From positions 80,788 to 144,787 of the IMG/VR virus record IMGVR_UViG_3300042975_000100: a DNA stretch of 64,000 bases; one strand, 5' to 3'. The notes below the pieces were generated by a model. That model was given only the letters and a program-made list of their open reading frames with translations, did not search any database and was not told the origin of the DNA. How positions within the stretch are numbered: the first letter of the stretch is position 1; each line of letters begins with the position of its first letter. The stretch is from a virus. Taxonomy: Duplodnaviria > Caudoviricetes. Below, one piece after another: positions 3,329 to 55,206 of this stretch. Made by a program: the position numbers and the translations under genes.

Positions 3329-6004
3329 TTACATTCCTCCATATTGATAGATGACATTGCCATCTAGTTTTAATGTCGGATCACTGTTTTTAAGAACAAT
3401 TAGATCCGCATCATACATACTGAGTTCGCTATTATGACTAATCATTATGCACTGCTCATATGAAAGCATCTTCATCAAAGTATTCAATACGGTGATGAAC
3501 TGCAATCTGTTTTGTGGATCTAATCCGCCATCAATCTCATCTAACTTGATTATAGAATAATCATTAGATGTAGAACGAAGCAGCGCGAAGCTAACGATCA
3601 TACTGATCATACATACTTGAGCTGTACTCATAGAAGAGATATCATCATTCATAATACCTCTGCCTAAGCATGGCATCTTAAACTCTTTCTCATTGATGAT
3701 GAATGGATGTAATACAAACTCCCCATTGAAGAATGACTTTAAAAGCTCATTAGACGTAGAGAGAATCCCATTCATAAACATCTCCATATACACAGTCTGT
3801 ATTCCAGTAGTTGGAGATGCATAATATTTGATCTTCTCAGTCATGTCATATTCAGATGAATACTTCTTGTACTGATCGAGATAATCATTATAGAGTACGA
3901 TCTTATACTTAGCCTTCTGCAAGTTATCCTGATTCTTTGGAATAAGATCAGTATTGATCATTTCCAATTCAGACATATCTGCATCCATAGTTTCTTTGAT
4001 TGTTGTAGCCGCTGTAAAACTTGCTTCGAGCCTAGGTAACTTATCAGTTATCTCATCTATTCTCTTAGATAAGTTCTGATATTGAATCTTGGTCTGATAT
4101 AGATTCGTATCAGTAGATAAGGATTTGTTAAGTTCACTGATCTCACCAGCATAAGAATCTATCTTCTTCTTAGCATCTTCTTCATCATGACGATAAGCTG
4201 CATATGCCGCCCTATCTTTATTGATGGATTCCGTTAAGAATAAGATTTCTGCTTCATTCTTTGATAGCGATGACTTCTGATCTTTGAATCTCTGAATATC
4301 TGCCTTAGTAGTTTTAACAACAGTGATCAGATTAGAACGGTCAAGATAACCCTTCGTATCCATCATTACCTGCTGATTGCTAAGCATAAACTTAGCATAA
4401 CTATCAATGTCTCTTACCCATTCCAGTCCATGGAACTTAGTAAGAATAGTCTGAGGAATAGATTCATAGAATCTGAATACCTCCATCTTACATTGCATGA
4501 CTTTACCGCTAGCCTTCTGTAAAGCTATCATATCCTGCAATGCATGCTCTTGCTCCTCTAATGCCACATTCAATTTATTGAAGTCATCTTCAGAGAGTAA
4601 ACAGCTCTTAGCACTTACGACTTCTTCAATGAATGGACAATCACTCAGATGATTACAATCATCTGGAATCAGAGAGAATGTTTTACATTGATCTTTGAGA
4701 GTTCTTTGGCGAACAATCAAAGCTTTAGACTCAGAGATAGACTCTCTGAGTTTCTCTATGGATTCATCGGTTGGTGCTACACTAGAACCAACCATCCCAA
4801 ATGTTTCTTCTAGGATATTATCCTCATAAGTATCTCTGATATATTGAATATGAGATTTGAGTCTCTGCATGAATTGAACAGCTGTATCATACTCATCTCT
4901 AGTTACATCATCATACTTATCAAAACCTATCTCAGAGAACTGTTCTTTGCAGAATTCGAGTTTATCTTTGCACTCCTGTATCCTTTCATCGATATCGCTC
5001 AAAATCGCGTAATCGCCAAAAGCATCGAGTTTAATCGTATTAGTTTGGATACGATCAGAAAGCTCTTTTTCTAATGCTAAGATCTTTTTGTACTGTTCTT
5101 CGGCATTTTCTTTCATAGATTTAGCTCTAGCGATTTTACTAGCATAGATAGCTTCGTAGTTATCAGCTACTCTGCTGAATCTAATTTTGTACTTAGCGCA
5201 ATCCTCGAAATTTGCATTGCATACAGTAAGTTCATTCTTCAGCTGATTATACTCGGTAAGTATATCTGTATTATCTTGGTCAGCTAACGCATTTAGCTTT
5301 TCCTTACTGGTTGCGATCTTTGCAATCAATAGATTACGTCTGTCTTCCATATCGCCCATTGAAGATTCCATCGACTTAATTGAACTATTAATCGATTCAG
5401 TATCTCCAATAGAATCCATCTTAGAATTGATAGAGTTAAGAATAGATTTCAATTCAGAGCTCTTCTTAACCAATTTCTTATAGATAAGATTATAGAACTC
5501 CAATTGGCTAAGCTTGCTATTGATGAATCTCTTTCTCTCTGCAGGATTCTTATCTGCTAATCCTCTATCATCAGAAGACAATTGTGCAAGTAGTAAGAAG
5601 TCTTCATCTATGCCAAGAATCTCATGGATGATCTTCTTTCCTTCAGTTACATTACCATTAGGATTGAGTTCTTTTGTAGTTCCATCTGAATATGTAACAC
5701 GGACATGACAGGAAGAGCTTCTTGTTCCGCTCTTGCTGCATGTACTTGTATGAGTTATATCCAATACCTTTCCTGGAAGGATATAGCTAATACTCTTAAC
5801 TGCATCTTTCCCAGGAACAAAGTCTTTTGCTTGTTCATTATCAGGATTGATGGCTTTGAGTATTGTACTCTTTCCTGAGCCATTGTCTCCTTTGATAACA
5901 GTAATACTGTGTGTCGCTTTAGAGAAGTCTATAAGAATCTCCTCTAATCCTAAACCATTATAAATCCCTACGTAGTTCCGCAGGTATAGTCGTGCCAATC
6001 TCAT
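3329..6004 (-). CDS. sbcC: SbcC/Rad50-like SMC ATPase (recombination/repair)
   Basis: Walker A GDNGSGKST, long coiled coils with a central Cys pair (DCNHLSDCPF, hook-like), signature variant MSTAQ, Walker B/D-loop KLDEIDGGLD, H-loop ISH. Confidence 0.9.
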   Translation of the reverse strand: MRLARLYLRNYVGIYNGLGLEEILIDFSKATHSITVIKGDNGSGKSTILKAINPDNEQAKDFVPGKDAVKSISYILPGKVLDITHTSTCSKSGTRSSSCHVRVTYSDGTTKELNPNGNVTEGKKIIHEILGIDEDFLLLAQLSSDDRGLADKNPAERKRFINSKLSQLEFYNLIYKKLVKKSSELKSILNSINSKMDSIGDTESINSSIKSMESSMGDMEDRRNLLIAKIATSKEKLNALADQDNTDILTEYNQLKNELTVCNANFEDCAKYKIRFSRVADNYEAIYASKIARAKSMKENAEEQYKKILALEKELSDRIQTNTIKLDAFGDYAILSDIDERIQECKDKLEFCKEQFSEIGFDKYDDVTRDEYDTAVQFMQRLKSHIQYIRDTYEDNILEETFGMVGSSVAPTDESIEKLRESISESKALIVRQRTLKDQCKTFSLIPDDCNHLSDCPFIEEVVSAKSCLLSEDDFNKLNVALEEQEHALQDMIALQKASGKVMQCKMEVFRFYESIPQTILTKFHGLEWVRDIDSYAKFMLSNQQVMMDTKGYLDRSNLITVVKTTKADIQRFKDQKSSLSKNEAEILFLTESINKDRAAYAAYRHDEEDAKKKIDSYAGEISELNKSLSTDTNLYQTKIQYQNLSKRIDEITDKLPRLEASFTAATTIKETMDADMSELEMINTDLIPKNQDNLQKAKYKIVLYNDYLDQYKKYSSEYDMTEKIKYYASPTTGIQTVYMEMFMNGILSTSNELLKSFFNGEFVLHPFIINEKEFKMPCLGRGIMNDDISSMSTAQVCMISMIVSFALLRSTSNDYSIIKLDEIDGGLDPQNRLQFITVLNTLMKMLSYEQCIMISHNSELSMYDADLIVLKNSDPTLKLDGNVIYQYGGM

Positions 6005-6051
6005 ATTGTCTCCCCCTATTAGTCAAAAGTTAAGTTTCTATTAAAAAATAA

Positions 6052-6076
6052 TCCCTGAGCTATAATAGCTCAGGGA
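6052..6076 (-). terminator. intrinsic terminator
   Basis: TCCCTGAGC-TATAATA-GCTCAGGGA hairpin followed by a T tract on the minus strand. Confidence 0.8.
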
Positions 6077-6205
6077 ATATTAGAATCTTAACGAAATAGA
6101 GATTCATTAAGAGAAATACAATATAAAGCGAATCTATCATCGACCTTGTACTTAGCGCAAAGTTGATGAATGTTCTTTTTGTATACGTAGAAAGCTCTGG
6201 CTATC

Positions 6206-6805
6206 TTATAAGCCAGACGTTCTTGCTCTTTCCTCAGCCCGAACATATTCACACCTCAATTCATCGATATGTTTCACGGTCTTCAGCATATCATCTGTAT
6301 CGATCTTATCAGTATTACACTTAAAGACCTCTACGTCATTTGTGCGCTTATAAAGACTGTATAAAGCATATTCCTTTATCCAATCGTTAGTCCTGATATT
6401 CGTCATATCTACGATATCAACAGCTCCAACCGTCAGCCTATGTGTATGATAGCAGTAGTGATCAATGCTATCAATAATCTTATAGAAAAGCTTATACAGC
6501 TTATGATAAGATACTTCCATGCCGTCGATAAAGTCTGGATAGATCAGAAAGATATTACGATTGTTCAAAGACGACTCACTGATATCATGAGCCATAGCGC
6601 ACTTGCTCTTGCCAAATACGAAGTAGATACTACACTCGTCACACTTAGCATAAGTATATACTCCATCAATGTCTTCCTTAGAATTTCCGACTGCTTCATG
6701 GATACGAGTAATCTCCGCACCACCTTTGTTCATTCTAGCACGAACAATAGTAGCTTGCGAACAACTCCCGTAAAATAAACCAGCCAATTTAATCCTATTG
6801 AACAA
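6206..6805 (-). CDS. hypothetical protein
   Basis: 199-aa ORF within a co-directional cluster. Confidence 0.6.
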   Translation of the reverse strand: MFNRIKLAGLFYGSCSQATIVRARMNKGGAEITRIHEAVGNSKEDIDGVYTYAKCDECSIYFVFGKSKCAMAHDISESSLNNRNIFLIYPDFIDGMEVSYHKLYKLFYKIIDSIDHYCYHTHRLTVGAVDIVDMTNIRTNDWIKEYALYSLYKRTNDVEVFKCNTDKIDTDDMLKTVKHIDELRCEYVRAEERARTSGL

Positions 6806-6806
6806 T

Positions 6807-7106
6807 TTATTTCTCCTCCTCTACATACCCAACTCCCACATTCTTATCCTGCAAGATAGGAGCCTGAGTAGGTTCACCTTTAAAGCCAACTGGCTCTAAC
6901 CCTCTTACAGTTAAATGCATAGGAGTGCTGTGCCCACATATAGGGCATACCAATTTGTAGTGAATCTCGTTTTTCAACTCAGCTTGAATCCAAGCTGTAT
7001 CAGATACTTTATATGCTGCATATGCAGATTTCATCAAGATCTTTTCATGATGACATCTTGGGCATACAGCAAATCTGTTTAATGTAATAGCAGTATGCTT
7101 TTCCAT
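6807..7106 (-). CDS. zinc-ribbon protein
   Basis: CPRC...CPIC pairs, AAGGAG RBS. Confidence 0.65.
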   Translation of the reverse strand: MEKHTAITLNRFAVCPRCHHEKILMKSAYAAYKVSDTAWIQAELKNEIHYKLVCPICGHSTPMHLTVRGLEPVGFKGEPTQAPILQDKNVGVGYVEEEK

Positions 7107-8155: not shown

Positions 8156-8392
8156 TCAGAAATTAGGGTCTGTATATTTGATAGCGCGCATATCACCAGT
8201 GATGAGAGTACGTGCGTCGGCGAACCGAGAAGTTCTTCCCGGAGGAAGGATCTCAGTAAAATCCTTAGCAACGCCATTCACTACTACACTACCAAATTTT
8301 AGATGCGTATTACCGAGAGCTGCTTCATTCTTTTTGATTTGCTGCATCTGCTCCCGAGAATACACAAATGTACGTTCATACATATTACTCAT
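8156..8392 (-). CDS. hypothetical protein coupled to the RNAP beta-N gene
   Basis: 78 aa; start overlaps the stop of the upstream gene. Confidence 0.65.
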   Translation of the reverse strand: MSNMYERTFVYSREQMQQIKKNEAALGNTHLKFGSVVVNGVAKDFTEILPPGRTSRFADARTLITGDMRAIKYTDPNF

Positions 8393-10157
8393 ACGTTATC
8401 GTCCCGCTTCCTTCAACCGGTACTTGATCAGTAGTTACAGCTTCTGGATGGAGAATCTCCATCATAGACTTGATACACTCAAGTCCTTCTTCTGCCATAT
8501 GCTCACTAACCTGTGGGATATCCATTTGTCCCAATACCGATTTCTTAAAATGAATTACATCTTTCAGCCCACGCTGCTTCTTATATCCATCATAGAGTTT
8601 CTCATACTCATCTCCCCAAGTAATTGGTTCTTGGAAATCTGAAATGAAACCATTCCCATACGTTTGAAGCAGTGGAACAACACTACCGCTGATACCAGGA
8701 TCGGATGGTGAAGAAGCATCAGGGTCAAGTACACCCATATTGCTTACATCAAGATACCGATAAATCTTTGGAATGGATTTACCGCTAGTCTCTCCGATAC
8801 CGCTTTCTCCCTTATAAGTACATTTAAGGGCAACGATAGAATCCATGTCAGTGACGGTGTTTCTAAATGTGATCAACTGAGATCTAGATACTGCACTAAC
8901 AAGGAACATCGGATTCGTAATGAGAGATTTCCGGATAGACCGAATATCTGCTCTAGGATTATCCGACAGATTATAGATACCATATGCCAAACGATTACCA
9001 TACATAGCGCCAATATAATCAGCGATATTGATACGTTTGGTTCTGATATTCAGATTATCTTTCAGCTTCAAGTTGCTGAATTCGTTCAGTACCCATTGCA
9101 GGATTCTGAACACATCGCGTTTATACTCTTCAGGTAATCTGATATTGTCTCTTGTATCGATGCTATATACCCCTCTCAATGAGGTGAGTACATTGCATCC
9201 TTTCATATACTTATCAGCTGTAAGCGAACTTGTATATGCATTACCCAGACGCATCTTCCAGAAGACATCTGAGAAGATATCCTGAATGGTAAGGTCTTTG
9301 ATACAAGTTTGTGTGCAAAGCATATTGATTACATGCTGAACAACAGCATTGCCATCGAAGATCTGCTTCGGAACACAGAAAAACAGCTTGATGCTGTCTT
9401 TGATCTCTCCACGATACTGTGGCTGGAATGAATAGAATATATTCTCATCCAGTGGAGTTTCAGATGGGATTACTACCTGACTGAGTCCAAAGAACTCAAG
9501 AGCATTGTAGAATCCATACTGAGCAAATACATACAGCGATGCCGATGTGCATTTGCTAAATGCCATACAATCATATTGTGTAGCATCATGCTCTTCACCT
9601 TTATAGTCATAGAGCTTCACAATGTTTCTGAAGATACGAATAGGGTGGAACATGGTTTTCAAAGTCACACAATGCGAATCAGATTTACTGGTTGCATTGT
9701 TATAGGTACTTCCATCAACGATTTGATACATAGAGCTGCAGTAATTTCCATTAATATAGAAATAGAACTTGTCCACTACCCGTGGGACAGCTATAATGAC
9801 ATCAATCTCTTCATGCTGATCTTTGATCTCGATATAGTACGTGACTATAAGAAGTTTCAAAGCTGACTGTTTCAAATCGATAAAGTTATATCGATTATCT
9901 TCGTCAGACCGTGACTTAGAAGACTTCTTCCGATTAAGCATCTCTTGATACTTACGGAGAGTCTCATTTACTTCGAAGAAGCTATCTACAACTCTAAAAT
10001 TCTTAACCAGAATCTTAAAGTTTGTTTCTCTCTGACAAGAGAGGATGATTTTCTTCAATACTTTGATGATCTCTTCATCGGAGCGGCTGAATAACTTTGC
10101 ATTGAACCGATAGGTTGTCTTTTCTGCAAAGTCATGAATAAACTGTTTCTGATTCAA
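8385..10157 (-). CDS. non-virion RNA polymerase beta subunit, N-terminal half (phiKZ gp123 / AR9-like)
   Basis: FYINGNY..MYQIVD, KDNLNIRTKRI and the fork/rif-region analog YRYLDVSNMGVLDPDASSPSDPGISGSVVP; 590 aa; near the beta-C gene. Confidence 0.8.
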   Translation of the reverse strand: MNQKQFIHDFAEKTTYRFNAKLFSRSDEEIIKVLKKIILSCQRETNFKILVKNFRVVDSFFEVNETLRKYQEMLNRKKSSKSRSDEDNRYNFIDLKQSALKLLIVTYYIEIKDQHEEIDVIIAVPRVVDKFYFYINGNYCSSMYQIVDGSTYNNATSKSDSHCVTLKTMFHPIRIFRNIVKLYDYKGEEHDATQYDCMAFSKCTSASLYVFAQYGFYNALEFFGLSQVVIPSETPLDENIFYSFQPQYRGEIKDSIKLFFCVPKQIFDGNAVVQHVINMLCTQTCIKDLTIQDIFSDVFWKMRLGNAYTSSLTADKYMKGCNVLTSLRGVYSIDTRDNIRLPEEYKRDVFRILQWVLNEFSNLKLKDNLNIRTKRINIADYIGAMYGNRLAYGIYNLSDNPRADIRSIRKSLITNPMFLVSAVSRSQLITFRNTVTDMDSIVALKCTYKGESGIGETSGKSIPKIYRYLDVSNMGVLDPDASSPSDPGISGSVVPLLQTYGNGFISDFQEPITWGDEYEKLYDGYKKQRGLKDVIHFKKSVLGQMDIPQVSEHMAEEGLECIKSMMEILHPEAVTTDQVPVEGSGTITYE

Positions 10158-10922: not shown

Positions 10923-11540
10923 TTAAGCTGCTGCTTCAGCTTTCTCATTGACTTTATCATCCTTGACATGCTGCTTCAGAACTTCCATCGGCGTGATCGT
11001 GATATAGACCTTCTCGCCATCATGCTCTGCCGTAGCTTTGAAGAAGTCATCATATACCAATACCGGATCGATATCGACATTGTTGATCATATAAGTCTTG
11101 ATTGCTTCTGCACATGCACACAGGATATCGCAGAGGAAATCCTTGCCATTTACAGTCTCAAGGCAAATGCCATAATTGTTCAGGCCAAAATCAGCCAGCA
11201 TATAATGGAAAACCTGGTCGCTCAAGCCAGCAATGTTTTCCTTCGGAATGTCTTTCATATCTTCTTCGTTGAACGTGAAAGTCAGGGAGAAGCTATCCCC
11301 ATCTTCGCTTTCATTGCTCTCAACGTACGCACCAAAGTAGAATGCGTCATTCTGGAAATCACGGATCTGACAACCCATCGTCTGACCCTTTTTCTTTACA
11401 ACTCCGAGGTATTTCGCAACGCCCTCAAAGAGCATGCGAACGCAACGCCAGGAGAAACGAACGTCCCAGGTGCAGCTCTTTTCCTCGTCCATAATTTTCA
11501 TAATCTGTGCATCAATGTTCGTGTCTTTGTACTGTTTCAT
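10923..11540 (-). CDS. acidic hypothetical early protein
   Basis: Start moved to ATG at 11540 (AAGGAG RBS) downstream of the early promoter at 11610. Confidence 0.7.
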   Translation of the reverse strand: MKQYKDTNIDAQIMKIMDEEKSCTWDVRFSWRCVRMLFEGVAKYLGVVKKKGQTMGCQIRDFQNDAFYFGAYVESNESEDGDSFSLTFTFNEEDMKDIPKENIAGLSDQVFHYMLADFGLNNYGICLETVNGKDFLCDILCACAEAIKTYMINNVDIDPVLVYDDFFKATAEHDGEKVYITITPMEVLKQHVKDDKVNEKAEAAA

Positions 11541-11660: not shown

Positions 11661-13985
11661 TTAGAACCCTGCCGGCCTCGGCATAGATTCCCACAGAACT
11701 TCTGGAGTAACTATTCTACAGGTCTTTGTATTGATCTTGGAAAGCTTGCTGGATTGAAATCCTACGTATGGAACTACAAGGATATCTGTCTTCTTAGTGA
11801 CACCTTTCTCTCCAGATGCATCGAACGTTCCAAGAGCGTTCAATGCCTCGACCAATTTAGAGTCTCTGCAGCCAGTAAATCGTACAATGACTTTGGCTGT
11901 ATAATCTCCATATGATCTTTGAATATTATCCATACATGCGATGGTTTTAAGATCATCCATGAACGCCTTGCGCTCATTTACAACGGTTAATGCTGCTGTT
12001 TCCCCAATACCTTTGATAGTCATCAAGGCGTTGTAAAGTTCATTCTCTTCTGCATCCATGATATACTCTAAGGATACATCCTTAAGAATAAGCTTCCATT
12101 TCTCTGCACTAAGATTAGAGAAACCAAGCGCGCCTATTACCCGATTATCAGGATAAGGCTTTGTTTTCAGCTCTTCTACCCGTGCAAAGAATTTCTTCGT
12201 CATAACCTCACCGATTACCGCACATGCCTTATCATAATCCAGATTGAAAAGATCACTAAACGATCTGAGATTCAATGATACTACATATGCCTCGCCAAAG
12301 TCCTTGAAGTTAAGTTTCTTAAGCATGTTAGTTACACGCTTAACCATACGTCCATCACAATCCATATTAGGACAATATGCTGTATCTCCAGTATCTGATA
12401 CCATTAAGGATGTCCCACATACTGGACATACTTCAGGAAATGGAATCTTAGGTCCTTTTGGTATTGCATTCTCTGCTATATTAGGCTTGGTAAGATACAC
12501 GATTACATCATGCCTATACTCAAGCTCTACAACGTCACCGATATGCAGATCCATCTGGTTAAATTTCTTAAACGAATGAATCGTAGTTTTCGGATGAATA
12601 GTACCAAAGAACTCTACTGGATTGAAATACGCCATTGGTGTGATGCTACCATCCTGTCCTACGGTGAATTCACAACCGGTAATAATGCTTCTCTTCTTCA
12701 TAGCTGAGAACTTGATCGCAATAGCCCATTTGTTTACAGAGTTGATTCGTCCCAATGCCTGCTTAGCAATCGGATTAGTATACTCAATAACTACTCCATC
12801 ATACATAAATGGAATATAGGGCCTCATTGCTTCTGCTTCTTTAGCAAACTTACTTACCATATACAATCTATTCATATAATCCCCATGAATCATTGCATAC
12901 CGCAAGTCTACACCAGAGCTATAATACTTATTCAAGAAATTGATCTCTACCTCTCTATCAATTCCAAGACCTCCAGTACAGATTGGTACAAGCGTCATAT
13001 AGTCTCTGAATCTTCTGGCATCATCTCTACCGGTTAACCCGATAATAGCTGTTCTACCATTTACATAAGTCATACCGGTATCCGCAGCAAGCTTATTGAG
13101 CATAGGGAATGTGATGATGCATTCGAATTTAATACCGAATACCATCTTATCATTTATCTCTGGATAACCACAAGCTCTTTGGAATACATAGCCTCCAAAG
13201 ATATGCGTCAAATCCTGAGCCTCATCATTTCCCGTATCTCCTCTCGACCTTGCAGATACAATCTTGTTACCCTGGATCTGGGCTTCAACAGAAATACCAT
13301 CATACTTCAAAGTCGCACACATATCAGGGAAGTCGAATCCCATCTGACGATGAGCCATCATAAAGTCTCTTTCAAAGATAGCTACTTTTTGTTGACTATC
13401 ATTAGGATCTACTCCATGCATAACTGCATCATTGATAAGGGTAAACTTACATTTGTCAAGCGTACCAACTAACTCTGGATACTCGTGTGCAACCGCTCTG
13501 CCCTTTTTGTTAGGCTTATCATAGTGCTGTACATCTTGTACTTCGAAGTCGCTAGCACGAACGTTAAATGTATTCCCAGTGATATTCTTGAAGAAGAATC
13601 CATCCGTATCAGCTAAATGCATAGCTGTAACCTTTCCAGTTACATGCTGTTCATAGCTGTCAGGACCTGCAGCCTTTCTCTGCGGGAATACTACCGGTGT
13701 TGCTCCTACAGGAGACATACCACCCGTAACTTTGTTATACTTCGTTACGGCTAAATCATACACTCCATCTTCTAATGGAAGCATAGTTCGATCTGTATTA
13801 TTGTACAGGATATTTGAGATAACCAGTACATCATACATATCTTTTGTCATTTGTTCCGTTGGCTCTGAATTTATAAAATTCATAGTCAATTCATTAAGGT
13901 AAGAACTTAGCTGAGGAGTAATCATCCGTAAAGATGCTTTCTCTAAATCAGCTATAACCTCCTTAAGATTTATATTCACTTTCAT
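11661..13985 (-). CDS. ligA: NAD-dependent DNA ligase
   Basis: KYDG adenylation motif, SRGD, DGVVI, WAIAIKF, VGQDGSITP, Zn finger CPVC...CPNMDC, HhH (IKGIGETAA), BRCT-like FTG. Start moved to 13985 (GAGGTG RBS). Confidence 0.95.
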   Translation of the reverse strand: MKVNINLKEVIADLEKASLRMITPQLSSYLNELTMNFINSEPTEQMTKDMYDVLVISNILYNNTDRTMLPLEDGVYDLAVTKYNKVTGGMSPVGATPVVFPQRKAAGPDSYEQHVTGKVTAMHLADTDGFFFKNITGNTFNVRASDFEVQDVQHYDKPNKKGRAVAHEYPELVGTLDKCKFTLINDAVMHGVDPNDSQQKVAIFERDFMMAHRQMGFDFPDMCATLKYDGISVEAQIQGNKIVSARSRGDTGNDEAQDLTHIFGGYVFQRACGYPEINDKMVFGIKFECIITFPMLNKLAADTGMTYVNGRTAIIGLTGRDDARRFRDYMTLVPICTGGLGIDREVEINFLNKYYSSGVDLRYAMIHGDYMNRLYMVSKFAKEAEAMRPYIPFMYDGVVIEYTNPIAKQALGRINSVNKWAIAIKFSAMKKRSIITGCEFTVGQDGSITPMAYFNPVEFFGTIHPKTTIHSFKKFNQMDLHIGDVVELEYRHDVIVYLTKPNIAENAIPKGPKIPFPEVCPVCGTSLMVSDTGDTAYCPNMDCDGRMVKRVTNMLKKLNFKDFGEAYVVSLNLRSFSDLFNLDYDKACAVIGEVMTKKFFARVEELKTKPYPDNRVIGALGFSNLSAEKWKLILKDVSLEYIMDAEENELYNALMTIKGIGETAALTVVNERKAFMDDLKTIACMDNIQRSYGDYTAKVIVRFTGCRDSKLVEALNALGTFDASGEKGVTKKTDILVVPYVGFQSSKLSKINTKTCRIVTPEVLWESMPRPAGF

Positions 13986-14052
13986 CACCTCATGAATATA
14001 ATATATACTTGCAAAAAATAATAGAGGGCTGATTATACAGCCCTCCATATTT

Positions 14053-16587
14053 TTATTCCTTATCCAGGTTCCCCTTCAATGGGAGATTAGGATTAACGAG
14101 CCTCATTACACGTTCTTTGATTACTCTCTGCTTACGAACTGGCACCTCGGAGTTGATAAGCTTAGTTACATCCTTAGTTGTAAGCTCTCCAATCATCTCC
14201 TTGATAGCTTCCTTCTCACGAAGGTCATCCATGATATGAGTAATTTCAGAAGCATTCTTCATAATCTCTTCGGAATGAAGAACCTCATGCCGAATATCTT
14301 CTGGGAATGAATTGATTACCATTGCAGTGCGTGGATCTACAAGAGTCATAGCTCTCATCTTATTACGAGAACCAGATTTCTTATGATCAATCCTCTTCTT
14401 TGCAAGCTCTTTGATCTTATCTTTCAGTCGTGGATCTACAAGAGTCATTGCTACACACTTTCTCCGATTATCAATCAGAGTCATTACAACCTGCTTGACC
14501 TTGTTACGCACTTTAAGCTTTTTGATAAAGTCAAATCGTAATCCGATTTCCTTAAGATAAACATCAACCTTCTCTACTTGTCGAGAAGTAGCATCATGAG
14601 GAATACGTACATTGCGCTGGAATGGATCACCAACCAAAAGTGTTTCGAACATACGTCTACCCTGTGGAGATGCAGACAGAAGCATCAATGTTTCAATCAA
14701 CGTTTCTGCGTTAGAATGCATCATATCAAGAAACTCCATTTCACCAAAGCGTACTGGAGTGGTCGCATGCGCTGCTTTATGAAACTTATTTGCTTTGCTC
14801 TTTGTATTCTCGCTTCTGATATTCGTAGATGCCAGAGATACAGAAGAGAACTTCTCTTCAGCAAACTGCTTCAAACGCTGCGTATATTTCTTACCTACGA
14901 TGATTTTGCGTCTAGCTTTAATCTGCCGCAATCCTCCACGGGAATTCTGTACAGTAACATAGAGATCTGACTGCTCAATCCATGGGAATGCTTCATACAT
15001 CTCTCTGATCATATCGATAGACATGCCAGAAGACATCGGAGGCATACACATATAGATTGCTCCATCATTGACGATAGAATCAAGATACTGTGTTCTTACA
15101 TCAATTCCATTGTAATTACAGAAATCTTGATACTCTCTTGCCTGTTCCTTATTGAAGATATTCATATAAGTGAACAGCATGTTCTCGCACTGTCCGATTA
15201 TACCCTGATCATCATAAGATCCATGAGAATAAGCTTCAGTAAGAATATTACCGATGCGTTCAATGATCTTAGAGCCACCATAGGTCATCTCTGTTTCCAT
15301 AGACTGACCCGGATTTTCTCGGTTTACGATAGTGCTACTATTATAGATAGCATCTACTGGCTCAAGAATGATCTCACCACCACGATTGACCGGATACTGC
15401 GGCATTCTATCATCTGGATAGATAGCTGATACAACGCCTTTACCGCCGTATCTATCAGTAATCTTATCTCCTACATGAATAGGGATGGTGATCATCGTAG
15501 TGATATTCAGATAGATATTGCTAAATACCTTATCGGAGATTGTCTGCTTGCCCTGAATAGTCCAGAGACACTGATAATACAGCTTCTCAGCTTCATAAGT
15601 CATCGGAACTTTCTTATCAACAAACGGCTGCATAGATTTTACGATATTAGCACAATACTCGAGCTTCATATCATAATAGTGGCTGATCTGCTGATTGTAG
15701 AGACTCGACTTGAGCTTTTCAGGATTGTTGCAAAACACATCGATATCGATAACTTTTCCTTTGAGCATGTATTTGTCATCGGAAATCATCATCTCTTTCA
15801 AATGATCACAGCTCTGCGAATACAGTGCTTCATCTTCTTTTCTTTCTCTACGTACTGCACAAAGAAATCCATTCTGAATCTCTTCACCAATATCAGGGAA
15901 TGTTTTATAATGCTCATTATCTCCATACAGATTCAATAGGATATCATTATCATTGATCTGGAAAGATGTCGAATCGAACAATGGAGCATTGAATCGTTTT
16001 GCTGCTGACTCAGATAATACGATCGGATCTTCTGTTGTGATAGCAAGAGCCATATAGATCGTAGTCAAGTTTACGCCACAGCATTTGTTATTGGCTTCAT
16101 CAAATGAATTAGCCTTAACAATAGGAGTGTCTTTTGGAATTACATCTCCTACATTCACTACGTCGAGTGTATCCGTATTCATGCTGTATCCATAACTCTC
16201 TGAGATATGACGATAATCTACCCGATTAATGATATCAAGTTTGTTATTCTTTGAATCCAGGCAGATGAGTGTGAAGTTCGCCGACTTCACGTTATAGTTC
16301 GTATTGTACTTAGGAATCTTATCGATGACGATCAGGTCCGCCTCGGCTTGCGCGAACGTAGAACTCATTGTACCAAATTGTGTTTCATACCCAGTCATAA
16401 TGATTGGGGTTTCTGCACTTTGCAACTGCATGGTCTGATCAGTCTGAATACCTTGCATAATCTTTCTTGAACCAGAGTTACAGTTGTTGAACGGCTGCAG
16501 TAAACCTTTGCCTAATGCATACTCTTGTGCCGGGAGTTCATTTTCAATCTCCTGACATGTGCTCATGATATTAAGTTTTCCTGCCAT
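14053..16587 (-). CDS. non-virion RNA polymerase beta subunit, C-terminal half (phiKZ gp71-73 / AR9-like), with a ~150-aa C-terminal extension
   Basis: QPFNNCNSGSRKIM...Q, GVNL...TEDPIVLSESAA, VGDKITDRYGGKGVVS.I.PDDRMP, NRENPGQ..E, VRFGEME. Start moved to 16587 (AGGAGG RBS). Confidence 0.93.
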   Translation of the reverse strand: MAGKLNIMSTCQEIENELPAQEYALGKGLLQPFNNCNSGSRKIMQGIQTDQTMQLQSAETPIIMTGYETQFGTMSSTFAQAEADLIVIDKIPKYNTNYNVKSANFTLICLDSKNNKLDIINRVDYRHISESYGYSMNTDTLDVVNVGDVIPKDTPIVKANSFDEANNKCCGVNLTTIYMALAITTEDPIVLSESAAKRFNAPLFDSTSFQINDNDILLNLYGDNEHYKTFPDIGEEIQNGFLCAVRRERKEDEALYSQSCDHLKEMMISDDKYMLKGKVIDIDVFCNNPEKLKSSLYNQQISHYYDMKLEYCANIVKSMQPFVDKKVPMTYEAEKLYYQCLWTIQGKQTISDKVFSNIYLNITTMITIPIHVGDKITDRYGGKGVVSAIYPDDRMPQYPVNRGGEIILEPVDAIYNSSTIVNRENPGQSMETEMTYGGSKIIERIGNILTEAYSHGSYDDQGIIGQCENMLFTYMNIFNKEQAREYQDFCNYNGIDVRTQYLDSIVNDGAIYMCMPPMSSGMSIDMIREMYEAFPWIEQSDLYVTVQNSRGGLRQIKARRKIIVGKKYTQRLKQFAEEKFSSVSLASTNIRSENTKSKANKFHKAAHATTPVRFGEMEFLDMMHSNAETLIETLMLLSASPQGRRMFETLLVGDPFQRNVRIPHDATSRQVEKVDVYLKEIGLRFDFIKKLKVRNKVKQVVMTLIDNRRKCVAMTLVDPRLKDKIKELAKKRIDHKKSGSRNKMRAMTLVDPRTAMVINSFPEDIRHEVLHSEEIMKNASEITHIMDDLREKEAIKEMIGELTTKDVTKLINSEVPVRKQRVIKERVMRLVNPNLPLKGNLDKE

Positions 16588-16660
16588 TAAAGAAATCCTC
16601 CTTAAACTGTTTCGACTTTCATATTTATAATATATGATCAAATAGCCATTTAGAGAAAAT

Positions 16661-18959: not shown

Positions 18960-20147
18960 TTAGTAATTATCCTTTGCGGAAGGAGTCCTTACTGTAATAT
19001 TCTGGGCCGTACCAGAAGCCGTCTTTACCGGCTCTACCTTCTGCACTTTCGCAAAGAACATGTTACGCTTCTTCGCAATGTCTTCCGGAGAGCTCTGCGG
19101 ACGCTTCATATCGAAACTGCCAACATTCGTATCGAAGCTTTTACGGAAGAAGTCATCATTACCCTTATTGACTTTCTCAATACGAGCCATGAATTCATTG
19201 TAAACTTCTTCGATCTCCTCTACTGGCATATCAAGTCCGGATACAACGACAAACAGCTCTTCGTCATCGAATACATCCTCTACATGCGTAAAGAATTCGA
19301 TCGTCTCGCCAAAGCGCTGCTTCAGCACATCAAAGCTCCAATCGATTGCATCTTTGGTCTTATTCTTGATATTGAGAATAACACCAATACGCTGGCAGGA
19401 TGCCGTAACATCCAGAGACTTAGAGTTATCAAGTCCCTCAGAGAGAACCTTATTGAAATCCTTCGGATTCTTGATCTTTCCGAGTTTGATATTCTCAATC
19501 GTCATGAAGCCGGCAGTAGTCGTCAGCTTCAGAAGATCTGTATCATCGATGTTCTGCTCTACAGACTCAACGATGTTCTTACCGATCAACGTACGAACTC
19601 TCATGGAGAACTCGTCATTTGCCATTTCCTGAGCTTTGAGTTTATTTCCAAAGCTATCATCCAGGAACTTCTTATTGGAGATTGCCTCTACCATGAACTC
19701 CGGAGAGAGTTCCTTGAACCAATCTACCGTGTTTTTCAATCCACGGGCATCATCTTCGAAGCCAGTGAATCCAAAGAGATGTACGTCAACTCCAAGAATC
19801 TCTTTGAAGTATTTTGCCATCACTACGGACATTCCAGAACCAGTACCGCCTTCAGTGCTTGTAGCAATGATGACGAACTTATCCTGCTCAGTCATGATCG
19901 TATCCAGTGAGATTGCATTGTTGCGAAGGGAATCCATGATCATCTCATTTGCGATTCCACGCTCTTTACCACAACCCTGGAACTTACCCTGCACCTGGAT
20001 TGCAATGTCCTTATATTCCGTCGGCACATCTTTCAATGTGCTATTGAGGAGAATGATATCATCACGCGATACCACCTGATCCTCTACCAGTTTAATAGCA
20101 GCCTTATTACCTGCTGCTCCAACACCAATAACCTTTACACTTAACAT
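18960..20147 (-). CDS. phuZ: phage tubulin (PhuZ/TubZ/FtsZ-like GTPase)
   Basis: VIGVGAAGNKA, LNST, GCGKER, signature variant TEGGTGSG, T7 loop NIDDTDL, disordered C-terminal tail. Confidence 0.88.
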   Translation of the reverse strand: MLSVKVIGVGAAGNKAAIKLVEDQVVSRDDIILLNSTLKDVPTEYKDIAIQVQGKFQGCGKERGIANEMIMDSLRNNAISLDTIMTEQDKFVIIATSTEGGTGSGMSVVMAKYFKEILGVDVHLFGFTGFEDDARGLKNTVDWFKELSPEFMVEAISNKKFLDDSFGNKLKAQEMANDEFSMRVRTLIGKNIVESVEQNIDDTDLLKLTTTAGFMTIENIKLGKIKNPKDFNKVLSEGLDNSKSLDVTASCQRIGVILNIKNKTKDAIDWSFDVLKQRFGETIEFFTHVEDVFDDEELFVVVSGLDMPVEEIEEVYNEFMARIEKVNKGNDDFFRKSFDTNVGSFDMKRPQSSPEDIAKKRNMFFAKVQKVEPVKTASGTAQNITVRTPSAKDNY

Positions 20148-25040: not shown

Positions 25041-26207
25041 ATGTTCGTTCAACCGATTGATGAAGCATACTTTGGAAAGACTAAAGAGATCTTAGACATA
25101 GAGTATGCAATTAGAGATATACGAAATAAGTTCAAATTCAAGAAAGATGGATATACCGAAGAGAATCTTAAGAAGGTTCTTGATAGTAAGCTGTATGAAA
25201 AGTTTACTACCGCTATCAAGAAAGCATTCGGATTCAAAGAGGTGTATGGCGGCTTTGATACCGATCAGTATATGAACTGCTATACCTATCCTATCAGAGA
25301 AGAAAAGTACGGTCTGATGCAGGATAGATTTGAAGTAAAAGGAAAGAGTATTAAATTCAAACCAGAGCTTAAAGCGGTAACTATGATAGTTGCTACAGCT
25401 CCTTTGTTCTTTACTGATAAACTTACGAATGCAGAACTCACAGCTATCTTTCTGCATGAGATAGGTCATAGCTTTAAACAGGCCGTTATTCCGGTAGAGA
25501 CTTGCCTTGACATACTCAGAGATTCTCTTGGCTCTGTAATCTTCAATTTCCTATCGGCTACCAAGCATACGATGAAGGAATTAGAGAAGAATCCATTCAA
25601 TGCTATTACAAATCTTGGAGCTATTATAAAAGCTTCTCCAGAAGCGAAGGAACGTACGCGTAAAAGATGGCCTAGCTTATTTGAAAAGGTTCTTAGAGGA
25701 TTTAAGAATACATCCAGTGGATCTATGTATATTGACGAGAAGTTTGCTGATCAGTTCGCAGCAATGTTCGGTTATGGAGTAGAGCTTAATTCTGCTCTGA
25801 TCAAGATAGACTATGATCGTAAGGATATCAAAGGAGCTCCGGTTCTTAACTTCCTCAATACATTTGCAGGACTGATTGATCTTTCATTAGATCTGATGCT
25901 TGATTGCCATCCATTCATTGGAGCTAGGCTTAAGTCTACAGTAAACGTATTACAGCGTGAAATAGATAAGAATAGCACCCTTCCAGATTCTGAGAAGAAA
26001 AGACTCAAGAAGCAGATTGACTCCATCAATCTTCTTGCTTTGCAGTATCAGAATCTTGATAAGACCTCTAACTATTCTATGGCCAAAAAGATGTATTTTC
26101 AGTTCATCTACAATAACCTTAAGGACGGAGATGTATTTTCCAAGTTCCTGGTTGGTGCCTATAACCTTGAATTAGTAGACCAAAAAATAAGAGATGCAAC
26201 AAAATAG
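25041..26207 (+). CDS. zincin metallopeptidase-like virion (head) protein, paralog of 56872-58149
   Basis: AIFLHEIGH (HExxH), DEKFADQFAAMFGYG, HP...RL; N-terminal IDEAYFGK; late-type promoter. Confidence 0.75.
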   Translation: MFVQPIDEAYFGKTKEILDIEYAIRDIRNKFKFKKDGYTEENLKKVLDSKLYEKFTTAIKKAFGFKEVYGGFDTDQYMNCYTYPIREEKYGLMQDRFEVKGKSIKFKPELKAVTMIVATAPLFFTDKLTNAELTAIFLHEIGHSFKQAVIPVETCLDILRDSLGSVIFNFLSATKHTMKELEKNPFNAITNLGAIIKASPEAKERTRKRWPSLFEKVLRGFKNTSSGSMYIDEKFADQFAAMFGYGVELNSALIKIDYDRKDIKGAPVLNFLNTFAGLIDLSLDLMLDCHPFIGARLKSTVNVLQREIDKNSTLPDSEKKRLKKQIDSINLLALQYQNLDKTSNYSMAKKMYFQFIYNNLKDGDVFSKFLVGAYNLELVDQKIRDATK

Positions 26208-27391: not shown

Positions 27392-27760
27392 TTACTGCTC
27401 AGTTAAAGGACTACCAGTCTGATAGTCATACCTGATATGAATTTCATACTCATCAGGAATCCAATTATCTATAATAGCTTCTACGTTCCTAGCTATCTCT
27501 TTAGATTCTTCATGATTGGATACATAGAATCTAAGAGAAGCATGTTTATCATGCTTAAACTTAAGACCTAAATCCATACAGAAGAACTTTACTTTTACTC
27601 CGTCAACTAAAGCCTTCCTTGGAATATTATACATACGCACTGTCATCAATGCATTCTTAAATGGAGATTCACTAGCTCCTCTGCATTGCTTGCAAAATAC
27701 TCTAGGTATACGTGAAAATACATACTTCGAAACAGTGTGTTGAAAATCTCTAGCAGCCAA
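27392..27760 (-). CDS. hypothetical protein
   Basis: 122 aa; AAGGGGG RBS; late-type promoter at 27804. Confidence 0.6.
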   Translation of the reverse strand: MAARDFQHTVSKYVFSRIPRVFCKQCRGASESPFKNALMTVRMYNIPRKALVDGVKVKFFCMDLGLKFKHDKHASLRFYVSNHEESKEIARNVEAIIDNWIPDEYEIHIRYDYQTGSPLTEQ

Positions 27761-27834
27761 TACTAGCTTCCCCCTTGTTTGTAGTTGCTCCCCATATACG
27801 TTCTTTACGTAAAAGTTTACATAGTTTTAACTTT

Positions 27835-29012
27835 TTACTTATTAGCGTTATGAGTTATAAGAGTAAAGTATAATAGAATAGCTCTATTATAACTATTCTT
27901 AGTAGGCTCTCTATGCTTTCTCTTTCTATAGGAAACGGAGTTATCCTCCAACCATCCCTCTATGATTGCACGCATTCTAAGAATATGAGGATCTTTAGTA
28001 TTAGGCTTTGGAGCGATAGTAAAGGTTATGAACCTAATATCGGTAACATCCTTTCTAGGATCTTTCTCGAAGTACGTATATACCAAGAGACGAATAAGCT
28101 CTTTGATTTCAAGATTATACTCTTTCTTACCAATGATAGCTTCGATTATATTCTTGATCTCTTCAGTCTTTACATTAGAATCAGCGCACATCTTGCATGT
28201 CTTATAATCTACAGATGCTGTATTAACACGCTGCATAGCTTTCTCTATGAATCTTTCAGCCTTTAAAGAATCAGAATCCGCCAGATGATAATCTCCCTGA
28301 TCAAATGAATCAGAATCATATGTCATATAATCCTTATTCTCATAAGCCTTATAGTACAGAGTTGCGATATTCTTCATGAATGTCTTTATACGGTCATGTA
28401 ACTGCTGTATCAGATATACTATATCTTCATCTTCAAATTCCTTGAAACGTCTCTCATATGAACTCATCCACGTTATACCAAACTTCTTGATAGTTCCAAA
28501 TACAGATCCTTCTGTTTTCAGATAGAACTTCTCAGAAAGCATATTGTTTACAACGAATTCCATTACATGACGATACTCACTTGGTGGTACTTTAGGGAAA
28601 GACATGTAGTGAATAGAAGGATAGAACTTGCCAGAGAATGCGAGATATATCATAGCTAATTCTGCATTCTTCTTATCTCTCTTCTTAATGAAGTAACGTA
28701 CTACGCACATCATAAGAATAGTAAGTTCATCCTTAGCAGCTCTAGGATTGAATGCTGGAATAGGATAGAAGTAAGTTTGCTGAATAGTCTTAGATACAGT
28801 TTCTCTATCTATTCCTACTGCAGAAAACATAGCTTCTGCATCATCTTCGCTATAGTAAATTCTATCACAAGGGCAAGTATCAAATATATATTGATTACGA
28901 TCATTGATGAACTTTTCTACTAAGCGCTTAAATTTATTCGTGTTACGAGCAAGCAAAGCATCGACCTTAGGACAGAGCCCGATACGATGACTTTAGTGTT
29001 TGATTTACTCAT
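27835..29012 (-). CDS. jumbo-phage protein, possibly virion-associated; apparent 1-nt frameshift near 28979
   Basis: GGAGG RBS and ATG at 29012 (MSKSNTKVIVS) join the 373-aa frame only if one base is added at the C run 28978-28980; motif YPSIHY.SFP...LSEKFYLKTEGS; late-type promoter. Confidence 0.7.
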
Positions 29013-40490: not shown

Positions 40491-40907
40491 TTATTTCAAA
40501 TTAAGTTCTTTGTTGTACTTCTCATCGAGTTCTTCATCCGTGATATCGTAGTTGTCTTTGATAAACGATACGAAATCTTCGAATGTGAAGTCGAATTCGG
40601 ATTCCATTTTTTCATCAAGCACATCCTGTTCCTGACAGAACCGAATAAATGTAAACGGACTCCATGCCTGACGAATCAATGCGGATTCAGAGATTACATA
40701 GCAATCATCCAATTCCAAGTCCTGTAAATTTGCAAAGAAGAAGTCGATGACATCCCGTTTACCGGTCATCAATCTCCATTCCGTAGCAGCCGTGTTATCA
40801 GCCCATGTAATCAATACCAAATAATGCTTTTCAGGATTAGCATTAATCACCTCTTTAGTTACTGGGTCTACGATGTGCATTACATTTTTCTTTTCTTCGA
40901 TTAACAT
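40491..40907 (-). CDS. acidic hypothetical early protein
   Basis: AAGGAG RBS at ATG 40907; promoter at 40964. Confidence 0.7.
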   Translation of the reverse strand: MLIEEKKNVMHIVDPVTKEVINANPEKHYLVLITWADNTAATEWRLMTGKRDVIDFFFANLQDLELDDCYVISESALIRQAWSPFTFIRFCQEQDVLDEKMESEFDFTFEDFVSFIKDNYDITDEELDEKYNKELNLK

Positions 40908-40975
40908 TTCAACACTCTCCTTATAATAGTTATTAGATTGAGTACGCATACTCTATCATAGCTATAATATATAAC

Positions 40976-43594: not shown

Positions 43595-45391
43595 TTATAC
43601 CAATTTCATTACAGGTTTTCTATAAGTTGCAGGATCAACAAGTGTCATTACAACCATCTTATTTTCTCTCTTAGGAGCTGTATTCTGCGCCTTGTGCTTT
43701 TCGAAGAAGCTCTCCTGCTTAATCTCTTTCTTCGGTTCACCACCACTATACACAGTACCTCCCTTGATGAGATTTTCGATATTATCCTCATCAGATTCTT
43801 CTGTAGGAATCGGAAGTTCTGTACTATACTTGATCGTTTTACCAAAGTTCTTCATGATAGTTTCATTAGAGTTATTAGCCAAACTAGAGAGTGTTACACG
43901 CTTTCCTCCTAAATCCATCTTCAACTTAACTTCACTATTATGATCATATGGGATATAGAATGAAGTCGCATTAGTTGCAATAGGGTAACGATGCTTTGTC
44001 AATTTAACACCCATGAACTTCTGATCTTCGCTAGGCCATTCAGGTGTTAAGAATATAGTGGCATCAAGATTCTCATCGATAAGTGATGACTCACCAATGT
44101 TTGCCCTTCCAAGTTTACGTACCAAATCATTCTTATTACTGCTACGGCTTTCATCGATGATGCGAGCGGCTTCACGATTCAGCTGAGATGCTGTAATTAC
44201 CGGAATATCCTTATAGCAAGCAAAGTTTCTGAACTCATTGATTACATTACCAAGGCGGAAACGCTCATCCATGTTATTACCATTGATAGGACGAATACGT
44301 TTGATATAATCCTGAATAAGACCAATAACTTCATACCCTTCATCTTCATAATCTTCTGTAAGTTTATAAAGATAATTTGTATCTACTGAATTAATCGGCT
44401 TATATTTAATAATGATTTCGATTGGATTATCTGGAGTTACTCCAAGACCTCTGCTCATCATAATACGAAGAGCATCATCCTCACTATAATCTTGGATACA
44501 ACCATCGGTGCAAACGGTTGAGAATAGAGTAGAGATAACTTCAAGAGTCTTATTCTCCATTGTCAGAAGAATAATGCAAGGTTTCTTAGTTGGGTCTTTG
44601 CAGACATAGTTTCTATTTGCAAGTTTGATTTGCTTAAGAAGATTGATAAGAGTAGTTGTCTTTCCCTCTCCCGGAAGTGCAAAGAAACAATATACACGAG
44701 ATCCTTCAAACCCTCCTGCGAGAATATCATTCAATGCTTGAATTCCAGTTGCCAATTTGAATGAAGGACGTTTACAACGCTCTATTACATCATGAACTCC
44801 TTCTCTCAAATTACTAAGAACGAACGTGTCGTTCTCATCTTCCGTGTCTATCGCATTACGTCTAAATTCGGTATTCATGTCTCTAGACATCTGCTGAATT
44901 TTAGCCGAATATTCTTCTTTCTGTGCTGGATCGCAATTCATGTAATCCATACATGCTGACTGAAGTTTATAAACGTTATTGTTGATAAACATCATGTTTA
45001 TGCAGTTGGAGATGGATTGCTCAGTCCATTCAACCTCTGCATTAGAAAGTTCGTTAAAGTTGTTAGGATCTACAGTGTATCTATCCCCGATTACACCATA
45101 TACATCCTGAAGAATCATGTTTCTTTCGAATATTCTTTTTTCAAGTTTTGCCGTAAGAATTGCACTGCAGATATTGCGACGCTCTATAAGTGATTGGTCT
45201 CCATTGAATACGCTCTCATTCAATGAATCCATAATTGTTTTAAGTTGGGTTAATGCAGAACGGTGAACTGATTTATTTGATGACAAAGCATACGAACAAA
45301 AGTTATTCATCATGTCTAAGCTAAAATTAAACCGGAGTCCTTCTGGTTCAGTTTTAGCGGCATATTTTTTCTTTCTTTCGGCTAAGTTCAT
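43595..45391 (-). CDS. dnaB: DnaB-like replicative helicase
   Basis: TGIQALND.L.GGF, Walker A ALPGEGKTT, LTME, Walker B IQDYIKRI, PVITASQLNR, IGESSLIDENLD, K.R finger (TKHR). Confidence 0.92.
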   Translation of the reverse strand: MNLAERKKKYAAKTEPEGLRFNFSLDMMNNFCSYALSSNKSVHRSALTQLKTIMDSLNESVFNGDQSLIERRNICSAILTAKLEKRIFERNMILQDVYGVIGDRYTVDPNNFNELSNAEVEWTEQSISNCINMMFINNNVYKLQSACMDYMNCDPAQKEEYSAKIQQMSRDMNTEFRRNAIDTEDENDTFVLSNLREGVHDVIERCKRPSFKLATGIQALNDILAGGFEGSRVYCFFALPGEGKTTTLINLLKQIKLANRNYVCKDPTKKPCIILLTMENKTLEVISTLFSTVCTDGCIQDYSEDDALRIMMSRGLGVTPDNPIEIIIKYKPINSVDTNYLYKLTEDYEDEGYEVIGLIQDYIKRIRPINGNNMDERFRLGNVINEFRNFACYKDIPVITASQLNREAARIIDESRSSNKNDLVRKLGRANIGESSLIDENLDATIFLTPEWPSEDQKFMGVKLTKHRYPIATNATSFYIPYDHNSEVKLKMDLGGKRVTLSSLANNSNETIMKNFGKTIKYSTELPIPTEESDEDNIENLIKGGTVYSGGEPKKEIKQESFFEKHKAQNTAPKRENKMVVMTLVDPATYRKPVMKLV

Positions 45392-54977: not shown

Positions 54978-55136
54978 TCAATCCTTTTTCTGGTCTTCCT
55001 TTTTAGTCTCTACTAATGTCATAGCTGTATGCTTTGGCTCATCATGGTGAGCCACAATAGTAGTCTTCTTGCCATTCCAATCAACCTTGAGATCAAGATC
55101 AATTGAGTTGATGGCTTTTTCAATGATGTTGCTCAT
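54978..55136 (-). CDS. 52-aa protein carrying the KHTAMTLVE motif
   Basis: GAGGAGG RBS before ATG 55136; MSNIIEK...PKHTAMTLVETKKEDQKKD. Confidence 0.6.
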   Translation of the reverse strand: MSNIIEKAINSIDLDLKVDWNGKKTTIVAHHDEPKHTAMTLVETKKEDQKKD

Positions 55137-55206
55137 TTGCAATGTCCTCCTCAAAATATAAAACAAAATAATTCCCTGTACTCGCAATGAGTACAGGGAT
55201 ATTATC

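Follow-up and report, generated by a model that had tools for sequence, protein, structure and literature searches.

A genome-specific peptide tag on DNA-transaction proteins of AR9-related jumbo phages, and a clamp-like protein as its candidate reader

We analyzed a 64,000-nucleotide stretch of viral DNA from IMG/VR (the window; bases 80788-144787 of the 144,787-bp contig IMGVR_UViG_3300042975_000100, below G000), in which an RNA polymerase (RNAP) subunit carries several copies of a short peptide motif, called the tag below, that recurs in other DNA-transaction proteins of the same phage. The completeness of the contig was estimated by CheckV at 58%. For comparison, four whole genomes of relatives were taken from IMG/VR, all rated complete, namely G002 (with terminal repeats and roughly 250 proteins) and G003-G005. 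A scan of IMG/VR with a single protein returned no relatives, and an alignment had to be used as the query in order to recover them. The nearest cultured phages are Bacillus jumbo phages of the AR9/PBS1 type, with about 32% identity in an RNA polymerase subunit.

The gene for the C-terminal half of the non-virion RNAP beta subunit (RNAP beta-C; 14053-16641, minus strand; positions are those of the window unless stated otherwise) encodes a protein of 862 amino acids (aa) with matches to PF00562 and phrog_3295. The protein matches Rpb2 domain 6, and its homology to AR9 gp088, which is the best phage homolog and is annotated as non-virion RNAP beta C-terminus, was confirmed. The gene is flanked by UvsX upstream and by the NAD-dependent DNA ligase downstream, as in AR9. 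The catalytic part of the protein ends near aa 700. AR9 gp088, at 665 aa, stops soon past the conserved core, whereas RNAP beta-C extends about 155 aa beyond the end of the AR9 and PBS1 homologs, in agreement with a preliminary description of this DNA, made from the letters alone, which had put the extension at about 150 aa. The additional tail (approximately aa 705-862; 14056-14529, minus strand) is absent from AR9 and contains four copies of the tag (14470-14496, 14431-14460, 14332-14361 and 14089-14118). Tails are common in this family, as most of the more than 1000 metagenomic RNAP beta-C homologs have one of 100-150 aa.

The preliminary description had listed copies of the motif in RNAP beta-C, a DnaB-like helicase, the ligase and a small protein. 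All of these are real, in frame, on the minus strand and correctly placed, although the list proved to be incomplete, with further carriers in the window and in the rest of the contig. The claim that the motif is more frequent than in a shuffled proteome was also borne out. Among the 154 open reading frames (ORFs) of the contig, the pattern [KR]-x-x-[AV]-M-[TRKH]-L-[VIA] was observed 11 times, against 0.06 occurrences expected from per-protein shuffles, and the five-residue core [AV]M[TRKH]L[VI] likewise 11 times, against 0.37 expected in the same proteome. For either pattern, the observed count was reached in none of 1000 shuffles. The patterns were composed after the copies had been seen, which inflates the exact ratio, yet an excess of this size goes well beyond such inflation. 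In a six-frame scan of the whole contig, the motif was confined to real ORFs. Synonymous codons vary from copy to copy, and the signal is therefore a peptide and not a DNA element, which also led us to reject a repeat at the DNA level.

All copies, including those added here, are in disordered tails, at termini or in a linker, and outside catalytic cores, as had been proposed. The genes described in this paragraph are all on the minus strand. The NAD-dependent DNA ligase (11661-14048; Pfam and PHROG matches) has one tag in an N-terminal linker insertion (13608-13634), and its orthologs have their own variant of the motif at the same place in G002 (aa 122), in G005 (aa 116) and in G009, a further tag-bearing genome. 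The DnaB-like replicative helicase (43595-45391; PF20307 and phrog_3213) has two tags at its C-terminal end (43631-43660, and the last eight codons, 43598-43621), and the C-terminal tails of its orthologs contain genome-specific variants, with three copies in G002. One tag is near the C-terminal end (55008-55034) of a small protein without family match (54978-55187; 52-69 aa depending on the start codon). Another, detected with a position-specific scoring matrix (PSSM), is at aa 20-29 (40863-40892) of g129 (40491-40949), a protein of 152 aa of no known family. In G002, G004 and G005, the orthologous proteins carry their own variant at this N-terminal site, with [DN]-P-x-T behind it.

Three further carriers, also encoded on the minus strand, have weak copies in this genome. 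The SbcD/Mre11-like nuclease encoded next to DnaB (45447-46583; homolog of the SbcD-like AR9 gp002) has a degenerate tag at its N-terminal end (46554-46580), which is weak in this genome, with clear genome-specific N-terminal tags in the G002, G004 and G005 orthologs. A zinc-ribbon protein of 99 aa (6807-7106) starts with a degenerate tag (7077-7103), and each of its orthologs in G002-G005 has the variant of its genome directly ahead of the first Cys pair. The N-terminal half of the non-virion RNAP beta subunit (8385-10157; 590 aa; homolog of an AR9 RNAP region) may have a weak tag near its C-terminal end (8445-8471); it is marginal here and clear near the C-terminal end of the G004 and G005 orthologs. 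Additional copies in this contig are found at the extreme C-terminal end of an SF2 DNA helicase, at the extreme N-terminal end of an AT-hook protein, at the N-terminal end of g031 (a 563-aa protein of unknown function encoded next to a DnaG-like primase) and twice internally in g042 (a lysine-rich protein of 437 aa). The PSSM scan also identified weak copies near the C-terminal end of the N-terminal half of the split B-family DNA polymerase (PolB N-half).

Taken together, the carriers are the late RNAP beta halves, both helicases, the split B-family polymerase, the ligase, the SbcD-like nuclease, the AT-hook and zinc-ribbon proteins and small proteins of unknown function. Virion proteins have no copies, and none was found in the major head, sheath, tube and terminase proteins.

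The spelling of the tag changes from one genome to the next, at matching sites in a dozen sets of orthologs. In G002, it reads I-[AV]-[ET]-R-[VI]-(P), with five copies in the RNAP tail, three in the DnaB tail and two at the C-terminal end of the SF2 helicase, and with the same spelling in the ligase linker, at the N-terminal ends of the AT-hook and SbcD-like proteins and in the N-terminal regions of g031 and g129. Equivalent sites have V-[VI]-[ED]-[FI]-V in G004 and G005, and [ML]-[IV]-D-A-[IV]-H in G003. The sites that switch jointly are the RNAP tail, the DnaB tail, the C-terminal end of the SF2 helicase, the ligase linker, the C-terminal region of the PolB N-half, the N-terminal ends of the AT-hook and SbcD-like proteins, g031, g129 and the zinc-ribbon protein. 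In the PolB N-half, the tag is located about 35 residues ahead of the C-terminal end in all five genomes (G000 and G002-G005), always in the local spelling.

The same picture was obtained from a larger collection of loci. The spelling of the RNAP tail in this contig is kept solely by the closest homologs (86-99% identity), and the others have different short hydrophobic repeats. Many more private spellings are seen in the RNAP tails of 56 IMG/VR loci, with two to six copies per tail. In 34 non-redundant IMG/VR loci, the RNAP tail was closer to the ligase linker of its own phage than to foreign linkers (Mann-Whitney p = 9e-6). Furthermore, two HNH homing endonucleases of G002 (L195:679-1683, plus strand; L068:17222-17866, minus strand) terminate in the G002 tag, and these mobile selfish genes seem to have adopted the docking signal of the resident phage. 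AR9 has no tags, and its RNAP ends in a short acidic stretch. The last residues of its DnaB-like helicase gp007 (L128:3583-5268, plus strand), D-S-G-I-P-F, are similar to the C-terminal tip of the bacterial single-stranded DNA-binding protein (SSB) and may be a different docking solution in a tag-less relative.

Since the tag co-varies across its carriers, we conclude from the sequences that it is a short linear docking tag, in the pattern expected for one co-evolving reader. Chance and composition are excluded as the source of this pattern. The co-variation of homologous tails thus strongly supports the central idea of the preliminary description, a peptide tag read by a common phage hub, with the reader itself being a prediction.

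As AR9 is tag-less, candidate readers were sought by listing core genes of the clade without a match in AR9. The most likely one is an ORF of 246 aa outside the window (contig 68358-69098, L005:2358-3098, minus strand), directly downstream of the PolB N-half gene and overlapping it by 4 nt. The protein matches no Pfam or PHROG family, and hence none of the known clamp sequence families (beta-clamp, PCNA, gp45), and was assigned by fold only; a beta-clamp gene (PF02768) was not detected in any of the five genomes. Positional orthologs in G002-G005 (in G002 at L078:2884-3588, plus strand; in G005 at L112:13352-14245, minus strand) are 18-21% identical, compared to 37-53% for the PolB N-half. In a near relative with unchanged tag, the values are 55% and 81%, respectively. 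Judging from these identities, the family is evolving very fast. A word-based search found only two relatives, and 344 clusters were recovered when 1.8 billion representatives were searched exhaustively with a profile. A lysine-rich C-terminal signature of the family is present in the ORF behind the polymerase gene in most polymerase loci of the clade in IMG/VR that have a readable downstream gene. In AR9, this position is occupied by an RNase H gene.

An AlphaFold2 model of the protein, based on an alignment of 89 sequences, reached a pLDDT of 91 and a pTM of 0.87, and has a repeated beta-alpha-beta-beta-beta topology. Nearly all top matches in Foldseek were PCNA, 9-1-1 and ASFV clamp chains (probability 0.97-0.99, with low TM-scores). 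When the model was aligned against all of the PDB (VIA), the top 39 matches were sliding clamps or viral processivity factors, with Z-scores from 10.0 to 6.2, and the next match had a Z-score of 4.9. For T4 gp45 (6drt_A), the Z-score was 9.6 over 185 residues, with an rmsd of 4.1. According to the model, the protein folds as a two-domain sliding clamp. The near-invariant lysines are located on or beside helices of the model, as expected for a DNA-facing surface.

The family was detected in 10 of 10 tag-bearing genomes (G000, G002-G005, G009, G010, G011, G013 and G014, the member in G014 being assigned by position and an hhalign E-value of 1e-5), and was not detectable in the three genomes without tagged tails that were tested (AR9, G006 and G007). 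A complex prediction, in which the DnaB tail (aa 558-598) was combined with the clamp-like protein in three copies, scored 0.14, compared to the tool's mark of 0.32, a result that counts neither way. Among the hubs considered in the preliminary description, the clamp has gained most, having both the fold and a distribution that tracks the tags, and import into a nuclear shell has lost support. The C-terminal half of the polymerase (L003:7455-9116, minus strand) ends in all five genomes with about seven residues of the pattern [YH]-[ST]-x-[IL]-x-x-[LF], which does not co-vary with the tag and may represent a second, fixed contact.

Other receptor candidates fared less well. Chimallin (PF25677) was rejected, because the profile found no match in G000 or G002-G005, while it does match PhiKZ gp54. 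PBS1-type phages lack chimallin according to Prichard et al. (bioRxiv 10.1101/2023.02.24.529968). A tubulin/PhuZ-like gene (18960-20147, minus strand) is also present in G002-G004, but tblastn found no match in tag-bearing G005 or in AR9, and tubulin was rejected as the receptor for its absence from G005. Tubulin thus occurs here without a recognizable shell gene. An AAA+ ATPase was rejected because it is missing from tag-bearing G003, and a GroEL-like chaperonin received low weight, because AR9 has a chaperonin yet no tags. A conserved protein of 660 aa of unknown function, considered as a shell protein, turned out to be the major head protein.

An acidic protein of 205 aa (10923-11540, minus strand; pI about 4.7), whose conserved gene lies between those of the ligase and RNAP beta-N, was rejected as a clamp. 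Its model (pLDDT 92) has two fused HU/IHF-like repeats, with a Z-score of 6.8 to the single-chain IHF 2iif_A, and its family is also found in tag-less G006. The acidic version of a DNABII-like fold is unusual, and the protein has a near-invariant C-terminal segment, K-Q-x-V-K-D-D.

The arrangement that we consider most likely is one in which the clamp is the reader, and we give roughly even chances to the tag being a docking motif for the clamp-like protein as reader and tool-belt. A single phage-encoded receptor would read the tag and co-evolve with it, and this receptor would most likely be the 246-aa protein encoded downstream of the PolB N-half. As a clamp-like processivity factor, it would sit with the polymerase on the phage DNA, and tagged enzymes would plug into the tool-belt by adding a beta-strand to a hydrophobic groove of the clamp. 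With four tags on RNAP and two on each DnaB subunit, the avidity would be higher. Tethering of the late RNA polymerase would couple late transcription to replicating DNA, in a way similar to gp45, gp33 and gp55 of T4.

By its mode of action, the proposed system is closest to T4 gp45 and the clamp-binding motifs on T4 polymerase, ligase, gp33 and gp55. In both cases, a two-domain clamp of about 230-250 aa would be encoded by the phage, short hydrophobic motifs are found on flexible ends or loops of polymerase, ligase and the late-transcription machinery, and replication would be tied to late transcription; gp45 is also among the best structural matches of the model. The list of clients and the terminal placement of the tags agree with the known T4 clamp clients (PMC7892883). 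The differences are also clear. The clamp-like protein has no sequence similarity to gp45, the tag is on the phage's own multisubunit RNAP beta in two to six copies, whereas T4 uses sigma and co-activator proteins, and the predicted binding would serve a far wider list of clients, with a lineage-private spelling and no loader found.

The PIP-box of PCNA and the motif of the bacterial beta-clamp are similar in that one hub serves many DNA-transaction clients, through motifs at extreme termini or in loops that have hydrophobic residues at positions 2, 4 and 5. However, these motifs are conserved across kingdoms, whereas the tag changes between related phages. In comparison with the bacterial motif Q-L-[SD]-L-F, the tag lacks the Q at position 1, and no beta-clamp gene was detected in the five genomes. 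As the spelling is genome-specific, a conserved host clamp would not explain it.

Among the described proteins of related phages, the one that comes closest is Rhc (RNase H-clamp), the third subunit of the split B-family polymerase in the chimalliviruses PhiKZ and Goslar (preprints, October 2026; PMC13648687, PMC13648698). In both cases, a jumbo phage with split PolB and multisubunit RNAPs has a cryptic, clamp-derived protein of the same fold class, which works, or here would work, with the polymerase and in support of late transcription. Rhc, for its part, is a monomer with an RNase H domain at its N-terminus and a large folded interface with the polymerase, and no motif network has been described for it. 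Here, a clamp-only protein follows the PolB N-half, at the site where AR9 has its RNase H gene. Sequence comparison provided no significant link, neither to AR9 gp128 nor to PhiKZ gp155 (Rhc; hhalign probability 0.5% in a single-sequence comparison).

Several points weigh against the clamp-like protein as the reader. Its binding to the tag is only a prediction, and the shared phyletic pattern of clamp and tag may go back to just one or two events in evolution. A clamp loader was not recognized, and AAA+ proteins (PF00004) were found in only three of the five genomes. Chimallivirus Rhc, a monomeric polymerase subunit with a large folded interface, does its work without a peptide motif (PMC13648687). 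The near relative with an unchanged motif has a clamp that is 45% diverged, so that the divergence of the clamp is not simply tied to changes of the motif. The AT-hook, zinc-ribbon and homing-endonuclease clients fit a general "go to phage DNA" address equally well, and other conserved candidates remain, namely a Whirly/PC4-like ssDNA-binding protein and the acidic single-chain HU/IHF-like protein. It is the missing loader, the monomeric and motif-less Rhc and the suitability of the clients for a general address that keep our estimate close to one half.

The tag could alternatively be a compartment address, read by an import machine or by the scaffold of a chimallin-independent replication compartment or condensate. 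All proteins bound for the phage DNA would then carry it, with multivalent tails driving the partitioning. Clients without obvious clamp business (the AT-hook and zinc-ribbon proteins, the small proteins of unknown function and the homing endonucleases) would be explained, up to six copies in RNAP tails would be in keeping with partitioning, and the tubulin of G000 and G002-G004 would find a place. However, no candidate shell or importer was identified in this analysis, chimallin was not detected in any of the five genomes and is reportedly lacking in PBS1-type phages, and tubulin is absent from tag-bearing G005. Import into the nucleus of chimalliviruses (Imp1/PicA, Imp7) concerns the same class of cargo, non-virion RNAP together with replication and repair enzymes (PMC11087766, bioRxiv 10.64898/2026.09.21.753271), but in the literature searched it is not described as based on a linear tag. 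We therefore consider a compartment address unlikely, while taking it seriously. A little less probable still is a reading in which the tag would not be a clamp plug at all, but a general, fast-evolving address code that admits proteins, including selfish homing endonucleases, to such a compartment or condensate. If this is so, a bacterial virus would have a linear "localisation signal" system.

The hub could also be another DNA-bound phage protein, a possibility to which we give similarly low credence. Apart from the HU/IHF-like protein, the candidate is a conserved protein of 266 aa (contig 27533-28333, plus strand; L002:9533-10333), a candidate ssDNA-binding protein with a weak resemblance to Whirly/PC4/PurA, a linker rich in G, N and S and a C-terminal tip that is acidic and hydrophobic. 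Both proteins are conserved in G000 and G002-G005, acidic (pI 4.5-5.6) and without tblastn match in AR9, and the set of clients resembles the interactomes of SSB or RPA. However, to our knowledge, RNA polymerase is not a usual client of SSB. Moreover, both proteins evolve more slowly than the clamp-like protein, and the HU-like family is also present in tag-less G006. The C-terminal tip of the 266-aa protein varies among some relatives out of step with the tag, and G000 and G002 have the same tip in spite of their different tags.

A model without any separate receptor, in which the tags form a homotypic zipper by pairing with each other as beta-strands and thereby gather the tagged enzymes in a factory, would also account for the joint change of all copies in a genome, since self-recognition forces it, and for the multivalency of many clients. 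We nevertheless regard it as very improbable, because the motifs are short, often charged in the center (E-R, E-F, D-A) and flanked by proline, unlike known zipper segments, and because there is presumably no precedent for such a set of proteins. Least probable of all is that the motif serves as a degron, as a site of protease cleavage or as a signal for capsid targeting. The terminal placement, reminiscent of ClpX-type tags and of the capsid-targeting sequence of T4, the presence of a prohead protease (Peptidase_S77) in G002 and the acidic third residue of several variants could be cited in favor, but internal and multi-copy tags are atypical for degrons, a third residue that is T, H, R or K here and T, S or Y in many G002 copies misfits a single S1 pocket, and the carriers are replication and non-virion transcription enzymes rather than head, sheath, tube or terminase proteins.

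Two observations concern other parts of these phages. At L001:4725-6575 (minus strand), the ortholog of a conserved G002 protein of 892 aa is present in two pieces that overlap at the DNA level (contig 6270-6575 and 4725-6500), with residues 105-262 of the query unmatched, which may be due to a frameshift, an intron or an assembly error. Three tandem paralogous genes (59522-63157, plus strand; 385-430 aa) have very similar N-terminal regions, and a related N-terminal sequence also opens the ORFs at 25041-26207 and 56872-58149.

Full-text literature searches turned up no account of such a shared peptide tag for jumbo phages, in agreement with the preliminary description, which knew of no such motif. 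The chances are about evenly balanced that the system is a clamp tool-belt with a lineage-private plug, present in multiple copies on the phage's multisubunit RNAP and copied by homing endonucleases. If this is true, a T4-like tool-belt operates in a large clade of uncultured jumbo phages related to AR9, which was invisible to annotation because the clamp belongs to no family and the motif differs in every lineage. The composition of the replisome, and a physical link between replication and late transcription via the phage RNAP, would then be directly testable. With the tag as a simple rule at the sequence level, the DNA-acting proteins of any clade member could be listed, including proteins of unknown function and the homing endonucleases that copy the tag. 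The clade would also offer a natural series of orthogonal peptide-receptor pairs, in which to study how a hub and its dozen clients alter a common code in concert.

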